Shown here in pieces: positions 7,902 through 37,903 of a stretch of 64,000 nucleotides of DNA. The DNA is from Minisyncoccia bacterium. GTDB taxonomy: Bacteria; Patescibacteriota; Minisyncoccia; UBA6257; 2-01-FULL-56-20. The DNA is taken from positions 172,609 through 236,608 of the forward strand of contig JBEKRC010000001.1 in NCBI GenBank assembly GCA_049997875.1. The letters are read 5' to 3'. Under the pieces are notes generated by a model. That model was not told the origin of the DNA, did not search any database, and worked only from the letters and a program-made list of their open reading frames with translations. Every line of letters starts with the position of its first letter. Position 1 is the stretch's first letter. A program made the position numbers and the translations under genes.

Positions 7902-7912
7902 GGACGTTATAG

Positions 7913-7984
7913 CCCTCGTAGTTCAACGGATAGGACGTCTCCCTCCGAAGGAGAAGATTGAGGTTCAATTCCTCACGAGGGCAC
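7913..7984 (+). tRNA. tRNA-Arg (anticodon CCG)
   Basis: Hand-folded. Acceptor gccctcg/cgagggc, D arm gttc..ggac, anticodon stem tctcc/ggaga with loop ctCCGaa, and T arm tgagg-TTCAATT-cctca. CCA is not encoded. Confidence 0.8.
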
Positions 7985-7987
7985 AGA

Positions 7988-8062
7988 CAACAAGAACACT
8001 CCTTCTCGCTCGTGCGAAGACGAATTCGCGAGAAGGAGTGTTCTTGTTGTTTTTGTTTTCTT
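7988..8062 (+). terminator. intrinsic terminator (23-bp perfect stem plus T-run)
   Basis: acaacaagaacactccttctcgc ... gcgagaaggagtgttcttgttgt followed by ttttgttttcttt. Confidence 0.6.
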
Positions 8063-8091
8063 TGAGGGGAATTGAACGGAGGGGTGGGTCG

Positions 8092-8207
8092 GAGGGGACG
8101 GTACGTCCCCTCCGTGAAGGAGGGCCGCGTTCTTACGCGGCAGTTCGGCACCGTGGGTGCCGAAAGCGCAGGCCGATCTTATCGGCCGAGCAGTGAAATT
8201 CCTCACG
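8092..8207 (+). other. cluster of four consecutive perfect hairpins ending in a decayed tRNA-Arg 3'-end copy (R1)
   Basis: Four hairpins: ggaggggacg-gta-cgtcccctcc; ccgcg-ttctta-cgcgg; cggcacc-gtg-ggtgccg; ggccgat-ctt-atcggcc. They are followed by gagcagtgaaattcctcacg (compare the tRNA 3' end gaggttcaattcctcacgagggca). Confidence 0.4.
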
Positions 8208-8268
8208 CCAGTAAATAGGAGTTGTTTAAGGCTTGAATAATGCAGTTATAGTAGTAATATGATTAATA

Positions 8269-9198
8269 ATGATTGAGGGAAGCAAATTGGACTTTCTTAA
8301 AACGATTGCAGAAAAAGAGGGCGCGGCCGTTATAACCTTTATAGCGTCTGATAAGGTTGTCCGTATCAACCCAGCGAGTTATGACACTACGTCGATATCG
8401 ACGAACGACGCTTACGAGCTTGAAAAAGTTATAGATGAATCATGTAGGGGAATCGATAAGGCGTTTATGTTGCTTCACTCACCCGGAGGCAGTCTCACGG
8501 CATCTTACAATATAGCTCGCTTTCTACAGAAACGCTTCAAACACTTGCATATCTTTGTGCCTTATGAAGCGGCAAGTGGCGCGACGTTGATGTCTCTTGC
8601 TGCCAATAAGATTACTCTTGGTGATTTAGGATATTTGACGCCGATTGATCCACAACTTTCGTATAAAGGGGGATGGGTTTCCAGTTATGGCATAGTCGAG
8701 GAAGTGGACATGTTGGAGAAAAAATTTAAGAACATGCGGCCAGAGGAGATGCCTATTCCATGGAAGCAAATGGCCGAGAAGCTTGATATCGTGCTATACC
8801 GCGAGATGGATACTCTTGTTTGGGAAGCCCAAGAGTATGCTGTCAAATTACTAAAAGGTGCAGGCTATAACGACGATGTAGCGAGAGCTGTAGCGTATCG
8901 ATTGGCGCGGACACCATACAGCCACGGTCATTGCTTTGGGAGGGAAGAGTGCGAGGCGATGAAGCTAAATATAGATAGCAGTGGAAAGTCTGTCGGATAT
9001 TTACTTGAGATGAAAAAGTTAATCTCGATTGTCAATGAAGAAGAGGGACTCGGGGTTGGGCACTTCATTCGGGCTGTTACTCCAGGTAAAAATAATCAAT
9101 CAGCGGCAGGCTCTTCGCTCGCTGCACCAAAAGAGGGAGGAACGCAGACACACACACGGTCATTAAAAAGAACGGCTATAGCTCGCAAGAAATCGTAA
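8269..9198 (+). CDS. ClpP/SppA-fold serine protease (SDH-family, S49-like)
   Basis: HSPGGSL ... ASGATLMSLAANK resembles the ClpP/S49 active-site serine region. AT-richer than the backbone. Confidence 0.55.
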   Translation: MIEGSKLDFLKTIAEKEGAAVITFIASDKVVRINPASYDTTSISTNDAYELEKVIDESCRGIDKAFMLLHSPGGSLTASYNIARFLQKRFKHLHIFVPYEAASGATLMSLAANKITLGDLGYLTPIDPQLSYKGGWVSSYGIVEEVDMLEKKFKNMRPEEMPIPWKQMAEKLDIVLYREMDTLVWEAQEYAVKLLKGAGYNDDVARAVAYRLARTPYSHGHCFGREECEAMKLNIDSSGKSVGYLLEMKKLISIVNEEEGLGVGHFIRAVTPGKNNQSAAGSSLAAPKEGGTQTHTRSLKRTAIARKKS

Positions 9199-9283
9199 AT
9201 TGAAAACTGCTTGGTTCAAACTACTCACGTAGGATTTGGTTTGTTGTAGTTACCCCAAGGAATGCCGCCGCCTTGCAAGTGCC

Positions 9284-9306
9284 GAGCAGTGAAATTCCTC
9301 ACGAGG
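9284..9306 (+). repeat. decayed copy of tRNA-Arg 3' end (R2, att-like)
   Basis: gagcagtgaaattcctcacgaggg shares aattcctcacgaggg (15 nt) with the tRNA 3' end. Confidence 0.5.
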
Positions 9307-9317
9307 GACAATCCTAC

Positions 9318-9374
9318 TTGATTAAAAAATCATTAAATACTCTTTGACTTCTTGCTTGCGCCCGCTATGATAAT
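9318..9374 (+). promoter_or_regulatory. operator-promoter module copy 1
   Basis: Palindromic TTGATTaaaaAATCA operator, TTGACT -35 box, 16-nt spacer, and TATGATAAT -10 box. An identical module recurs at 11723-11779. Confidence 0.5.
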
Positions 9375-9406
9375 GGCGAGATGAACGTGGTATCATAGTA
9401 GTAACC

Positions 9407-9610
9407 ATGGAGCGTAAAGACCTCTTTTTCCAAACCTACGCGAACCTTCCTATTAATGTGAGAAAGGAGATTGTGTTGAGCATAGATCCTCATGGGCCGA
9501 TTACCTGGGAGGTCGCCTATAGGGAAATCAAGGCGGATACTGACCTCGGCAAAATCATTCTTCAGAAATTATTCGATTTGCAATTTATAAAAACTGATAA
9601 TGTCAAATAA
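9407..9610 (+). CDS. small hypothetical protein (67 aa), paralog of the next gene
   Basis: LP.N...D..G....E....D.D.GK.I...L pattern shared with the 9600-9827 product. Start is about 30 nt after the promoter -10. Confidence 0.45.
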   Translation: MERKDLFFQTYANLPINVRKEIVLSIDPHGPITWEVAYREIKADTDLGKIILQKLFDLQFIKTDNVK

Positions 9611-9827
9611 TCAAAACGTAGAAATTACCCCTGAGGTGGTTGACTTGGTTGTCGCCCGCCTCGAAACACTCCCCCCGAATATTTCTATGTCCGTTGGTGA
9701 CAAGGGCAATTTTGATCTCAGAGAATTGATAGAGCACGTTAAGGATCGCGATGAAGTTGGCAAGCAAATTATTGAGATGCAGTTGCTTTATCTGCAATCT
9801 CTTAAGGAGCTCGTTCCGGCCGAATAA
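9600..9827 (+). CDS. small hypothetical protein (75 aa), paralog of the previous gene
   Basis: Overlaps the previous gene by 11 nt and abuts the next (9827/9828), so operon organisation. Confidence 0.45.
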   Translation: MSNNQNVEITPEVVDLVVARLETLPPNISMSVGDKGNFDLRELIEHVKDRDEVGKQIIEMQLLYLQSLKELVPAE

Positions 9828-10442
9828 ATGCTGGCGTTGATAACCAGGCCGAGGTATGAGGATACCACCCACTATCTTTTTTATTGGGCTGGTGAATTGG
9901 TTCGGGAGGCTGAAAAGAGGGGAGTTCAAGTTATCGATTTAGAAAAAGAAAAAGCCTGCCGGAAGATGGTAGAAAGTTATCTGGCGAAGAAGGACCCCGA
10001 CATAGTGATTCTTAATGGACACGGAGACGAAACGTGCGTCGTGGGGCAGGATGGCGAAAAACTGTTCATCTTAGGGCAAAATACGCACTTGCTTAAGGGT
10101 AGAGAAGTATATATTAGGGCGTGTCGAGCCGGGCGGCAATTAGGGCCTGATATTATAAAAGCCGGAGCAAGCGGTTTTATAGGATATATTCAGAATTTTA
10201 TTTTTCCCTACGACAAGGACAGCATCCAGCGTCCCTTAGAGGATGAATACGCCAAGCCAAATTTGGAGTGTTCAAATCAGGTTGCCAGATCGTTGCTCAA
10301 GGGCAATCCTGCACAAATGGCGCATCAGGATGGCATGCGGATGTTTCGCAAGAAGCTTGACGAGACGATGACGAGCAATTCGCGAAATTCTGCGGTGGCG
10401 ACCTGTCTTCTGTGGAACATGACGAGCCAAATAGCCTTGTAG
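9828..10442 (+). CDS. minimal caspase-like (C14-fold) cysteine protease domain protein
   Basis: DIVILNGHGDE...DGEKLF...LLKGREVYIRACRAG matches the caspase/metacaspase His-Gly ... Q-A-C-x-G dyad architecture, 204 aa. Confidence 0.5.
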   Translation: MLALITRPRYEDTTHYLFYWAGELVREAEKRGVQVIDLEKEKACRKMVESYLAKKDPDIVILNGHGDETCVVGQDGEKLFILGQNTHLLKGREVYIRACRAGRQLGPDIIKAGASGFIGYIQNFIFPYDKDSIQRPLEDEYAKPNLECSNQVARSLLKGNPAQMAHQDGMRMFRKKLDETMTSNSRNSAVATCLLWNMTSQIAL

Positions 10443-10455
10443 GAGAGTCTATAAT

Positions 10456-10482
10456 CTTGAGGTCGCAAATTGCGACCTCAAG
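10456..10482 (+). terminator. hairpin after the caspase-like gene (no clear T-run)
   Basis: cttgaggtcgc-aaat-tgcgacctcaag, an 11-12 bp perfect stem. Confidence 0.35.
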
Positions 10483-10500
10483 TCGTGGGTGGGACTGGGT

Positions 10501-10523
10501 GAGCAGCGAAGCTCCTCACGAGG
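10501..10523 (+). repeat. decayed copy of tRNA-Arg 3' end (R3, att-like); probable right boundary of the tRNA-Arg island
   Basis: gagcagcgaagctcctcacgagg shares tcctcacgagg with the tRNA 3' end. Confidence 0.45.
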
Positions 10524-10558
10524 TGCTGGCCGTCGTGGACGATGTTTGAACGGCAATG

Positions 10559-11089
10559 CTAGCCATTCTTACTTCTCGCCACATCAGAAAGTAGATCAAA
10601 GGCCTCGCGACTTTCTAGGTCCATCCGTTTCTTAAAGAAGTCAAGCATAAGGTTGAGCGATTCCCTGGAAAATAATCCATACTCTATAGCTGGCCAATTC
10701 CTTTTATACCAAACCCCGATTTTTTCCGGCTTTATGGTTGATATGTCTCCTCGGGGGTCTTTGCACGCGACAACAATGCGATGTATTCGATGAACAACCG
10801 AAGCTCCCAAGCACATGAGACATGGTTCAAATGTGGTAAATAATTCAATTTTTGCTTTACCATGTTTATTCCATTTAAAGATGTTTTTAGAGTGTCGCAA
10901 AAACAAAAGCATTTCAGCGTGTGAGATGCGGTCGGCCTTATTCTCTTTTTTATTGTGTTCCTTGGCAATGATGCGTCCATTTACCACAAGCACTGCGCCA
11001 ATGGGATAGTTGCCAGCCTTCTTTGCCACAGAAGCTTGCCGAAGAGCCGCCCGCATGAACTTCTTGTCTCTTACAGAAAATCTTTTCAT
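10559..11089 (-). CDS. tadA: tRNA-specific adenosine deaminase (CDA-fold)
   Basis: HAEMLLF ... EPCLMCLGA zinc-binding deaminase motifs. N-terminal AALRQA...PIGAVLVVNGRII is typical of TadA. Confidence 0.7.
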   Translation of the reverse strand: MKRFSVRDKKFMRAALRQASVAKKAGNYPIGAVLVVNGRIIAKEHNKKENKADRISHAEMLLFLRHSKNIFKWNKHGKAKIELFTTFEPCLMCLGASVVHRIHRIVVACKDPRGDISTIKPEKIGVWYKRNWPAIEYGLFSRESLNLMLDFFKKRMDLESREAFDLLSDVARSKNG

Positions 11090-11144
11090 ATTTCAATTAT
11101 AGAACTAGTTTCAGTTGCTGGCATGCCTGGACGATGTCTGAACC

Positions 11145-11699
11145 CTATTGCCCGCCGACCTTCCGCCCGAGTCCTTCCAAGACCTGAACGTTGGGCAGGC
11201 GGGCGAGGAGCTTGCCGGGGAGGACTAATTTGGATTTGCGGATGCCGCTCCCGATAATGACGTATTCCGCATCAACCACGGTCTTATCAACAAGGAGAGG
11301 CCAATCGCTCGGAAGACCAATGGGAGTAATGGCTCCATACTCCATTCCGGTTTGCGCGACCGCTTGGTCCATAGATGCAAACGATACTCTGCGGGCATCG
11401 AGGGTGCGTCGCGCGAGACCATTCACATCCGCACGGGTACTCCCGAGGATGACGCACGCCGCGAACCATGTTCGCTCGGCACGCTTTGCTTCAAGGACCA
11501 CGCAATTAGCTGCTTGATTTATCTCAACGTGATAGTGTTCGCAAAATGCCGCCGTGTCAGAAAGGTTTGGATCTATCTCGGCCACTCCTATCTCATTTGC
11601 ATCGGGCATGGACGAAAGCATGCTTGCAACCCCTTTCGCGACCAGTGCCAGGTGTTCGTTCGCGGGAACTATTTTCAGAGTTCCCAGGTGAATATCCAC
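11145..11699 (-). CDS. ybaK: YbaK/ProX-family aminoacyl-tRNA deacylase
   Basis: IIGSGIRKSKLVLPGKLL matches the YbaK GxGxRxxxLxLxPxxL region. Confidence 0.65.
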   Translation of the reverse strand: MDIHLGTLKIVPANEHLALVAKGVASMLSSMPDANEIGVAEIDPNLSDTAAFCEHYHVEINQAANCVVLEAKRAERTWFAACVILGSTRADVNGLARRTLDARRVSFASMDQAVAQTGMEYGAITPIGLPSDWPLLVDKTVVDAEYVIIGSGIRKSKLVLPGKLLARLPNVQVLEGLGRKVGGQ

Positions 11700-11722
11700 T
11701 TGTTAAGCATAGCGCACTTCCA

Positions 11723-11779
11723 TTGATTAAAAAATCATTAAATGATCTTTGACTTCTTGCTTGCGCCCGCTATGATGGT
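11723..11779 (+). promoter_or_regulatory. operator-promoter module copy 2 (near-identical to 9318-9374)
   Basis: ttgattaaaaaatcattaaatgatctttgacttcttgcttgcgcccgctatgat. The downstream ATG is at 11793. Confidence 0.5.
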
Positions 11780-11792
11780 CACAAGACGAAAC

Positions 11793-12341
11793 ATGGACAA
11801 AAATGAAGCAGTTGGAAAAGTGAAAACGGTCGGCAACTGGTTTTCGGCGATGCTCCTCGGCAATATCCGCGAGCTGATCGCAAGAATTGATGAGAGGACG
11901 ATCTTTATGCAGAGAGATCTGAAGGATATAAAGCCGAAGGTGGACGACATGTTCCCGAAGGTTGACATTCTTTGGAGAGATCGAATTACTCCTTCGCGCT
12001 CCCCGCGTCGACTCAATGCGAGAGGCAATGCCATACTGAATGGCAGCGGCATTAAAGCAATTATTGACGCTAAAAAAGCTCAACTCCTCCAGCTGGTGCG
12101 AACAAAGAATGTCTCAAATGCCTATGATGCGGAAAATACGATATTGGAAGTGGTAAAAGAGTTGCCCCTACACTACCCAGACATAATAAGCGACTTAAAG
12201 AACGGAGCGTTTAGGGTTGGGGCCAGCATTGACGAAGTACTTCTTGTTGGCGGGATTTATTTGCGAGACATTATTTTCTCGGATTTGGGATTTTCACTTG
12301 ATAATGTAGATCGCCCGGGAACTTCAAAAGGAGGAGAATAA
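11793..12341 (+). CDS. hypothetical protein (182 aa) under the duplicated operator-promoter
   Basis: ATG is 14 nt after the -10 box. No recognised domain. The 3' end overlaps the convergent DUF2283 gene by about 85 nt. Confidence 0.45.
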   Translation: MDKNEAVGKVKTVGNWFSAMLLGNIRELIARIDERTIFMQRDLKDIKPKVDDMFPKVDILWRDRITPSRSPRRLNARGNAILNGSGIKAIIDAKKAQLLQLVRTKNVSNAYDAENTILEVVKELPLHYPDIISDLKNGAFRVGASIDEVLLVGGIYLRDIIFSDLGFSLDNVDRPGTSKGGE

Positions 12342-12508
12342 CGTACAGAACATTCCTGTCCCGAACAATTTAAAATCTCAACGCCTAAGAGGTTCCCTTT
12401 TTTGTCGTAATCAACCAGGCAGGTCCCTTCCTGTTTTGTTTTTGCTACCTCGCCCTTTTTCAGTTGAATATAGAGGGCGTCTGCTTGGGGATCGTGTTTT
12501 ATTTGCAT
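12257..12508 (-). CDS. DUF2283-family small protein (putative antitoxin partner)
   Basis: MQIKHDPQADALYIQLKKGEVAKTKQEGTCLVDYDKKGNLLGVEILNCS matches the DUF2283 profile (M.I.YD.E.DALYI.L ... GVEIL.AS). Confidence 0.55.
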   Translation of the reverse strand: MQIKHDPQADALYIQLKKGEVAKTKQEGTCLVDYDKKGNLLGVEILNCSGQECSVRYSPPFEVPGRSTLSSENPKSEKIMSRK

Positions 12509-12519
12509 GGTTTTGTTAT

Positions 12520-12732
12520 TTATGTCCAGTACGCGGTGATGACGCCGATTCTTTTGGCGCTTTTTATGTTGTATATAACGGTCAGAGTCCCCCGCTGGTT
12601 TCTGTGTGTTGCCTTTCTTAAGCCGCCGCTCGTGTCTTCCTGCGTACCATGGCGTAAGGCCGTTGCCACGTCCTTTTTCGTAATTTTTCTTTCTTTGAGC
12701 CGAGCCAGTGCGTGGTGGGTGTAATCCGCCAC
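12520..12732 (-). CDS. DUF4258-family small protein (putative toxin partner)
   Basis: YTHHALARLKERKITKKDV ... TLTVIYNIKSAKRIGVITAYWT matches DUF4258 (H...R..ERGI ... VVY ... VITAY). Confidence 0.6.
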   Translation of the reverse strand: MADYTHHALARLKERKITKKDVATALRHGTQEDTSGGLRKATHRNQRGTLTVIYNIKSAKRIGVITAYWT

Positions 12733-12797
12733 CAGCGGATTGTGCCATAAAGAGCATTAAATCCTTTTAAAAAGATTTTTGCGTTATACTGTCCTAT

Positions 12798-20635: not shown

Positions 20636-20950
20636 GGGGACGCACTGGCTTTGATAAGGGCAAGCAGTGGGTTTGCGGGCCGAGGGCGACGACGTAACCG
20701 CCGCACAAAACATAACTGCCAACTCTAATAGAGTTACAGCTCCGGCATTCGCTTACGCGTAATGCCGGGATCGGTGAGTCCGGGTTCCTTGGGCTCATAA
20801 CCGGTCTTATATAAGGGGACTAGCCGCGGCGGACGATCCTATGCCGCGCGCGAAAATCAGGATCACGTTGCTAGTGTTCCACTAGACACGCCCGTAGACA
20901 GCCCACGCGCATTACCTTTACACGGCGGTTCGATTCCGCCCGTCTCCACA
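20636..20950 (+). ncRNA. ssrA: tmRNA (SsrA)
   Basis: 5' GGGGACG pairs with 3' CGTCTCC (one G-U). It has the T-arm GGTTCGATTCC and the 3' end ccgcccgtctcca (CCA not encoded). Internal ORF ...NRVTAPAFAYA-TAA. A TACAAT -10 box lies just upstream. Confidence 0.8.
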
Positions 20951-37816: not shown

Positions 37817-37903
37817 TGGTGGGCAGGGAGGGATTTGAACCCTCACGACCTTGCGGCCATAGGCTCCTGGGGCCTACATGTCTGCCAGTTCCATCACCTG
37901 CCC
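37817..37903 (-). tRNA. tRNA-Leu (anticodon CAG), class II with long variable arm, CCA encoded
   Basis: The reverse complement gives GGGCAGG...TAGGC-ccCAGga-GCCTA-TGGCCGCAAGGTCGTGA-GGGTTCAAATCCCTCC-CTGCCC-A-CCA. Confidence 0.8.

Follow-up and report, generated by a model that had tools for sequence, protein, structure and literature searches.

In organisms from bacteria to humans, proteases of the caspase fold play a central part in immunity and in regulated cell death. To our knowledge, those known from prokaryotes are large, sensor-fused enzymes. The analysis reported here concerns a stretch of 64,000 nucleotides (nt) from a Minisyncoccia bacterium (assembly GCA_049997875.1, contig JBEKRC010000001.1, positions 172,609 to 236,608), hereafter referred to at its full length as the window. 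Downstream of a tRNA-Arg(CCG) gene, this window carries an operon of three genes, A, B and C, encoding two small proteins and a stand-alone caspase-fold (clan-CD) protease, within a region of variable gene content. Described systems with which it may be compared include the CHAT proteases of prokaryotic immunity (SAVED-CHAT, 8tl0; TPR-CHAT/Csx29 of type III-E CRISPR, 7y83; the anti-sigma factor DdvA, 8rot), the caspase-like protease of type IV Thoeris (bioRxiv 10.1101/2024.10.24.620036), the gasdermin-activating proteases, the gingipains and, for the setting of the operon, tRNA-targeted islands. We lean, if only slightly, towards the view that two independent things meet at this locus: an insertion hotspot and a horizontally moving, autonomous A-B-C module, the protease of which would be gated by its partners.

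The A-B-C operon and the catalytic domain of C

The operon comprises the following features (lengths of proteins in amino acids, aa):

9318-9385, plus strand: promoter region of A-B-C, with TTGACT-16-TATGAT at 9344-9371 and a TGATT-N5-AATCA palindrome upstream
9407-9610, plus strand: gene A, encoding a 67-aa conserved small protein, preceding B at all loci examined
9600-9827, plus strand: gene B, encoding a 75-aa acidic small protein, overlapping A by 11 nt and abutting C
9828-10442, plus strand: gene C, encoding a stand-alone 204-aa clan-CD cysteine protease, assigned by fold and conserved residues
10456-10482, plus strand: hairpin with a perfect 13-bp stem ending the operon (inverted repeat I14)

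C is a minimal clan-CD (caspase-haemoglobinase fold) catalytic domain with an intact His-Cys dyad and no regulatory domain. The dyad residues, His65 and Cys99, are encoded at 10020-10022 and 10122-10124. Among 145 representatives with a pairwise identity of at most 50%, His65, Gly66 and Cys99 were conserved in all 145, and Asp139 in 143 (99%). A histidine and then a cysteine, each following a hydrophobic strand, form the canonical clan-CD layout. Both this His-before-Cys arrangement and the alpha/beta/alpha sandwich fold, which unites caspases, gingipains, legumain, separase and CHAT, were found in C, with NGHG (63-66) following strand 59-63 and Cys99 following strand 93-97. A preliminary description of the locus had proposed a caspase-like His-Gly...ACRAG architecture; the His-Gly and the Cys are indeed conserved, but the Cys is the only conserved residue of ACRAG.

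By its fold and dyad C fits clan CD, and it fits no described sequence family. The window protein had no match in Pfam, and NCBIfam, PADLOC and PHROGs gave none either; A and B were likewise without a family in these four libraries. The C family did not reach the thresholds of the C14, C25, CHAT, C13 and C11 families. Sporadic sub-threshold matches were obtained with 37 members, to CHAT (PF12770, E 0.0057), C25 (PF01364, E 0.0069) and U57 (E 0.0096), with PF01364 and PF12770 each matched by a single member of the 37. Against PDB sequences, the A, B and C profiles gave nothing above noise, the matches being to cytochrome c6, phospholipase D and, at E 0.0012, a designed double-psi barrel. Asp139 lies 40 residues past the Cys, in what we take to be a parallel with the S1 Asp of Lys-gingipain, and this analogy suggests that C may cleave at basic residues. 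The family is large: a word-indexed search yielded 115 homologues, and an exhaustive profile search 2319 clusters at E<1e-3 and 1202 at E<1e-10, the best-scoring 150 clusters being nearly all about 205-220 aa long.

Protein A carries the motif YANLP.N.R.E...GPITW.VAY.EI...LGK.IL. Protein B was modelled (pLDDT, the predicted local distance difference test, of 84.9) as helix, beta-hairpin, helix and helix, and no structural relative of this model was found. The order of elements predicted for A resembles that of B by eye, and in both proteins a conserved Gly-Lys opens the last helix. A BLASTP comparison of A with B gave no alignment, and a profile-profile comparison (hhalign) gave a weak one (probability 31%, E 5e-4). 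The two proteins most likely share one fold. The operon of two small proteins and C proposed previously is present, but the paralogy claimed for A and B is weakly supported. B has a net charge of about -7 by residue count and, being acidic, is unlikely to bind DNA. DUF1380 was considered for B and rejected as anything beyond a lead: the homologue in L039 scored 24.3 bits against a cut-off of 26, others scored lower, and the literature on DUF1380 was uninformative for B. The three genes are apparently translationally coupled.

The promoter region is conserved before the A-B-C cassette of a related genome, L001. In the window, this 68-nt region is also duplicated, with an 88% copy at 11723-11790 upstream of an unrelated open reading frame (ORF) of 182 aa, suggesting either shared regulation or promoter capture.

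Distribution and possible roles of the cassette

The census of A-B-C covered 24 species-representative genomes, recovered with a restrictive pattern, and five further loci, giving 29 distinct loci. A and B were located directly upstream of C in 29/29 of these, with different neighbours each time. A measured 59-81 aa and B 69-88 aa, and the genes usually overlapped or abutted. Carriers were mostly Patescibacteria, including Wolfe-, Yanofsky-, Giovannoni- and Nomurabacteria and Levyibacteriota, together with two metagenome-assembled genomes (MAGs) labelled Woesearchaeota or archaeon (DPANN). The GC content of the cassette was measured at eight loci, six in addition to the window and L001, and at each of them was below that of its surroundings. 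A-B-C is accessory and mobile. In L003 (9280-10932 and 15894-16615; soil metagenome), the cassette adjoins a large serine recombinase, with BubE, ThiF/DUF6791 (a ubiquitin-like conjugation system) and a DEAD-box helicase within 8 kb, and these neighbours indicate that it probably belongs to an integrative element. A PemK toxin, a Fic/DOC protein, and an HNH endonuclease with a helix-turn-helix protein, all toxin-like or mobile, were encountered within a few kb of A-B-C (L001 9760-10149; L040 1905-3233; L041 3373-4044), an anecdotal observation. No general targeting of tRNA genes by A-B-C is claimed: a tRNA gene lay within 1.5 kb at about 9/29 loci, little different from what a background density of roughly one tRNA per 22 kb would give.

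In the mechanism that we infer, A·B would be a dedicated partner of C, whether as its inhibitor, its adaptor or its first substrate. A and B would then gate the proteolytic activity of C in trans, and freed C could cleave cellular or invader proteins, so that A-B-C would operate as a module of the addiction or defence type. Such a conflict role is plausible from context. Several results weigh against it, however. PADLOC-DB v2 had no match for A, B, C or the neighbouring SDH-type protease at E up to 1, so that the link to defence raised by the preliminary description found no backing there, and viral contigs contained no relatives of C; contextual support for a conflict role was not found. The neighbours of A-B-C are often housekeeping genes, and no sensor domain was recognisable in the three proteins. 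Mean column identity across phyla is 56% for A, 46% for B and 56% for C, and such strong conservation is more in keeping with a physiological role than with an arms race. Moreover, the extension to archaea rests on MAG labels; the flanks of the two "archaeal" loci contained no decisive archaeal marker.

Some of these results are equally the arguments for another account, in which A-B-C serves the physiology of ultra-small symbionts, as a system for maturation or quality control, and is accessory only through genome streamlining, with C processing A and/or B, or with A and B delivering particular substrates. All three proteins are highly conserved across Patescibacteria phyla and the two archaeal MAGs, housekeeping neighbours are frequent, and the defence and phage libraries give no match. 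However, the distribution is patchy (24 loci from the species-representative genomes), A-B-C is missing at this locus from 2/3 close relatives, the GC content of the cassette is always below that of its surroundings, and the cassette is found in a hotspot beside toxin-antitoxin-like genes here and beside a serine recombinase in L003. We consider a maturation system possible, though not probable, and retain a mobile, partner-gated protease as the preferred reading.

Whichever role applies, the A-B-C architecture, two novel small proteins and a bare protease, matches no PADLOC v2 system and no literature found; searches for caspase-like, clan-CD or gingipain proteases in the candidate phyla radiation (CPR), Patescibacteria or DPANN returned nothing relevant. 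A bare 204-aa catalytic domain, always encoded with two small partners and present in more than 2,000 sequence clusters without a covering model or paper found, would offer a minimal, tractable model for the trans-regulation of a clan-CD protease. In organisms about whose biology little is known, A-B-C is also a candidate set of genes for lifestyle or conflict.

The insertion hotspot between tRNA-Arg(CCG) and uracil-DNA glycosylase

The part of the window preceding and surrounding the operon contains the following features:

7912-7984, plus strand: tRNA-Arg(CCG), intact (ARAGORN; Rfam tRNA, 65.7 bits)
7982-8062, plus strand: long terminator hairpin with T-run (inverted repeat I1, fold)
8060-8217, plus strand: conserved structured (four-hairpin) unit (RNAalifold, covariance model)
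8188-8210, plus strand: repeat R1, in the left copy of a 45-nt duplication (8185-8229)
8269-9198, plus strand: gene for an SDH-type ClpP-fold serine protease, 309 aa (PF01972; 100% identical to the product of locus tag ABSE18_00925)
9284-9306, plus strand: repeat R2, in the right copy of the 45-nt duplication (9281-9325)
10501-10523, plus strand: repeat R3, a decayed copy (20/23)
10559-12757, no strand assigned: remaining variable cargo, absent from L001, L044 and L045

A search with GAGCAGTGAAATTCCTCACGAGG, allowing up to three mismatches, matched only R1, R2 and R3, with 0 matches expected in shuffles. The 15-mer AATTCCTCACGAGGG occurs exactly twice, in tRNA-Arg (7967-7981) and in R2 (9293-9307), and the source of the repeat core is the 3' end of the tRNA (7958-7984). 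Nine viral matches to the 15-mer were dismissed as chance matches in coding sequence. The spacing is 1096 nt between R1 and R2 and 1217 nt between R2 and R3, and the two copies of the 45-nt duplication are 78% identical. The three repeats have a common 5' part, GAGCAGTGA, which is not present in the tRNA, and they must therefore descend from each other rather than independently from the tRNA. The R repeats consist of an element arm and a tRNA-derived core.

Three relatives share the tRNA-Arg backbone of the window, comprising an amino-acid transporter, tRNA-Arg and uracil-DNA glycosylase (UDG), at nucleotide identities of 75-81% (L001), about 72% (L044) and about 68% (L045). Four other assemblies of the same genome were 99.99-100% identical across the hotspot region, so there was no strain variation to exploit; ORF calls of 158 aa and 66 aa in some of them reflect differences in gene calling, and a reading as mutations was dismissed. 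The order in L001 is tRNA-Arg, terminator, hairpins, a 115-aa membrane ORF, one R, the same promoter, A-B-C, a DUF2878-like gene and UDG. In alignment, the single R of L001 joins the left flank of R1 to the right flank of R2, and the segment with the SDH gene is missing there, indicating either that this segment was inserted in the window or, equally, that L001 lost it through R x R recombination. L044 and L045 keep the transporter, tRNA-Arg(CCG), the hairpin unit, R and UDG, but have no SDH gene, A, B, C, deaminase, YbaK or 182-aa ORF at this locus; the cargo after R consists of unrelated genes for membrane or secreted proteins. In L044, ATTCCTCACGAGGGCA is present four times, in the tRNA and in three additional 3'-end copies of 16-19 nt each, at 2023, 2262 and 3930 (84, 323 and 1991 nt beyond). 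The second copy has the ancestral long terminator hairpin behind it, as is classically seen where a tRNA 3' end has been displaced, and before the fourth lies a second hairpin unit with an internal deletion.

The repeat statistics, the single R of L001, the different cargo of L044 and L045 and the low GC content of the cargo (0.40-0.48, versus 0.53 for the window and about 0.56 for the flanking genes) show that the interval from tRNA-Arg(CCG) to UDG is a genuine insertion hotspot, recurrent and lineage-specific, without an integrase, and that the repeats are tRNA-derived copies of an attachment site. Of the properties of tRNA-targeted islands, the locus has directly repeated tRNA 3' ends, variable presence and atypical composition; a terminal integrase gene was not found. 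No recombinase was identified among the ORFs of 7985-12790 or in the arrays of L001, L044 and L045, and a scan of the window for tyrosine-recombinase motifs gave no credible ORF, so the recombinase would have been lost or would act in trans. The R site spans about 25 nt (GAGCAGTGA followed by AATTCCTCACGAGGG[CA]), its core copying the tRNA 3' end. In the mechanism we propose, cargo enters immediately 3' of R, and each insertion duplicates R, giving the array R1, SDH protease, R2, A-B-C, R3 and further cargo. Two points count against this interpretation: the full hairpin unit is missing at R2 and R3, and insertion of the SDH segment is indistinguishable from its deletion by R x R recombination.

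Much of the preliminary description withstands this comparison. The tRNA-Arg gene, the terminator and four-hairpin cluster behind it, the three repeats with 15 nt exact in R2, and the ORFs are where it had placed them, and serial site-specific insertion without a remaining integrase is borne out by the different cargo in L044 and L045, the extra copies in L044 and the single R of L001. Its picture of two segments between decayed att duplicates is too simple, because a conserved structured unit includes the repeat, and the repeats, given their common 5' part, are not the separate copies of the tRNA 3' half that it had supposed. The island does not end at 10530, since the variable region of this genome extends to about 12790. 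Relatives with the same genes in this place, which had been named as an argument against an island, were found to the extent that L001 carries A-B-C and L044 and L045 do not.

The sequence following the tRNA is highly structured. The terminator arms, of 28 nt (7982-8009/8028-8055), are 93% complementary, and the terminator keeps its position in L001 and L044. Four hairpins follow (8091-8113, 8124-8141, 8144-8164 and 8171-8187), and the region 7985-8215 had a minimum free energy z-score of -9.4 relative to shuffles. The segment GGGGAATTGAAC (8066-8077) is the reverse complement of a T-arm segment of tRNA-Arg, GTTCAATTCCTC, and its pairing with R1 closes the four hairpins. RNAalifold, applied to the window, L044 and L045, predicted 45 pairs, 11 of which had compensatory changes, and hairpin 4 of L045 has another sequence with its shape unchanged. 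The unit has no match to an Rfam family. With a covariance model, full copies were recovered at 178, 174 and 132 bits, only at this locus and in three species (elsewhere than in the window, at 2128-2284 of L044 and 9367-9503 of L045); partial copies were found in L044 (3863-3952) and L001, and a weak match at R3 (10483-10530, 13.9 bits). The unit may be an att arm, a folded recombination site or an RNA. In an unrelated genome, 1.4 kb downstream of A-B-C, a unit of similar appearance has a GGATCGAACC core (L041 8029-8170).

These structures raise the question of whether the locus is an integron-like array, similar to a cluster of attC sites lacking integron-integrases (CALIN) and seeded from the tRNA 3' end, in which the R sites with their hairpin unit would serve as folded recombination sites rather than being remnants of classical tRNA-targeting islands. 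The cassettes have one orientation, measure about 1.1-1.2 kb, are each bounded by R and come without an integrase; the closing stem ATTGAAC...GTGAAAT surrounds an interior of variable sequence and conserved structure, with the 11 compensatory pairs; and the cargo after R differs by species. However, no IntI-like gene was found (motif check only), each genome has a single full structured unit, with R2 and R3 bare or decayed, and the cassettes have their own promoters. The core motifs of integrons are RYYYAAC/GTTRRRY, and those observed here deviate from them. The exact identity with the tRNA 3' end is also more simply explained by tRNA-targeted integration, and we regard an integron-like array as quite unlikely.

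The SDH-type gene was previously proposed to encode an SDH/S49-like protease, and this is supported by a score of 55.6 bits with PF01972 SDH_protease (cutoff 31.3) and a match to phrog_11747 (1e-30); an alignment of 21 sequences of the subfamily shows no variation at Ser103, Asp127 and His219/221. No close relative was found in viral contigs. The gene lies in an insert of about 1.1 kb, flanked by the 45-nt duplication. It was also thought to be functionally paired with the A-B-C operon, and the two proteases, adjacent, on the same strand and both of low GC content, might be taken for one two-protease defence island. The comparative context contradicts this reading. The SDH gene is a separate insert with its own duplication, missing at this locus in L001, which keeps A-B-C, as well as in L044 and L045. 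Its homologues in other Patescibacteria (L013 and L015, for example) are solitary genes in unrelated contexts, flanked in one case by L28 and DUF3850 and in another by LexA and thymidylate kinase, and no SDH neighbour was detected at any other A-B-C locus; a 314-aa neighbour in L006 (Wolfebacteria) proved to be unrelated to SDH. A joint island is therefore highly improbable, and the adjacency of the SDH gene and the operon is coincidental, an accident of the hotspot.

A bolder synthesis, which we consider doubtful, would make A-B-C a new three-component protease system of ultra-small episymbionts of both domains, in which a heterodimer of A and B, two small proteins of novel fold, would gate C or be processed or ligated by it. 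It would function as an immune or addiction switch, or in tagging or maturation, similarly to legumain or glycosylphosphatidylinositol (GPI)-transamidase, and would move into a tRNA-derived, structure-dependent site without a linked integrase. The hotspot itself, present in four related genomes, documents the uptake of cassettes at a tRNA-derived structured site without a linked integrase and bears on gene gain in streamlined genomes.

Downstream of R3, the remaining cargo consists of the following genes:

10559-11089, minus strand: TadA-like deaminase, low GC, bracketed by a 44-nt direct repeat
11145-11699, minus strand: YbaK-like deacylase
11793-12341, plus strand: 182-aa ORF without a family match, behind the duplicated promoter
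12257-12508, minus strand: DUF2283 gene, paired with DUF4258
12520-12732, minus strand: DUF4258 gene, forming a toxin-antitoxin-like pair with DUF2283

The 44-nt direct repeat (73%) is located at 10521-10564 and 11113-11156, its first copy beginning inside R3, and may mark a further cassette insertion. The DUF4258/DUF2283 pair is given as a single ORF of 163-166 aa in some assemblies. Elsewhere in the window, a pair resembling a diversity-generating retroelement (about 1225-2610), with bAvd (PF22296, minus strand) and a reverse transcriptase (RVT_1), sits between the S20 and RuvA genes and is missing at that place in the syntenic L001. The genes for transfer-messenger RNA (20636-20949, tag ANSNRVTAPAFAYA) and tRNA-Leu(CAG) (37817-37903) look ordinary.

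Comparison with described systems

The type IV Thoeris protease and the gasdermin-activating proteases resemble C in being clan-CD protease effectors encoded in small operons. However, they are paired with a TIR signal generator or a gasdermin substrate, neither of which was present at any A-B-C locus, and the corresponding PADLOC models were unmatched. The SDH product resembles SDH_protease (PF01972; NCBIfam NF047768) in its profile score above threshold and its invariant Ser, Asp and His residues, but it falls below the equivalog cut-off of NF047768 (70 versus 250 bits) and is solitary in genomes.

The hotspot shares with tRNA-targeted islands its position next to a tRNA 3' end, the direct repeats of that end, the atypical GC content and cargo that varies among relatives. 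It differs from them in that the arrays of the four genomes have no integrase, the cargo units measure about 0.1-1.7 kb, the repeat lies inside a four-hairpin unit, and insertion recurs at a displaced copy rather than at the tRNA itself.

C is 12-14% identical to the catalytic domains of gingipains (MEROPS C25; PDB 4rbm, Kgp, and 4ief, RgpB). The gingipains have a signal peptide, a prodomain, an Ig-like (immunoglobulin-like) domain and a C-terminal domain targeting them for secretion, whereas C has none of these and is a cytosolic protein of 204 aa encoded with two small partner genes. The CHAT proteases are large proteins in which the catalytic part is joined to a sensor or adaptor domain (SAVED, TPR or transmembrane), and the loci of A-B-C differ from CHAT systems in having no CRISPR, CBASS or TIR genes nearby. 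C, by contrast, stands alone as a catalytic domain, and any regulation must therefore come from A and B.

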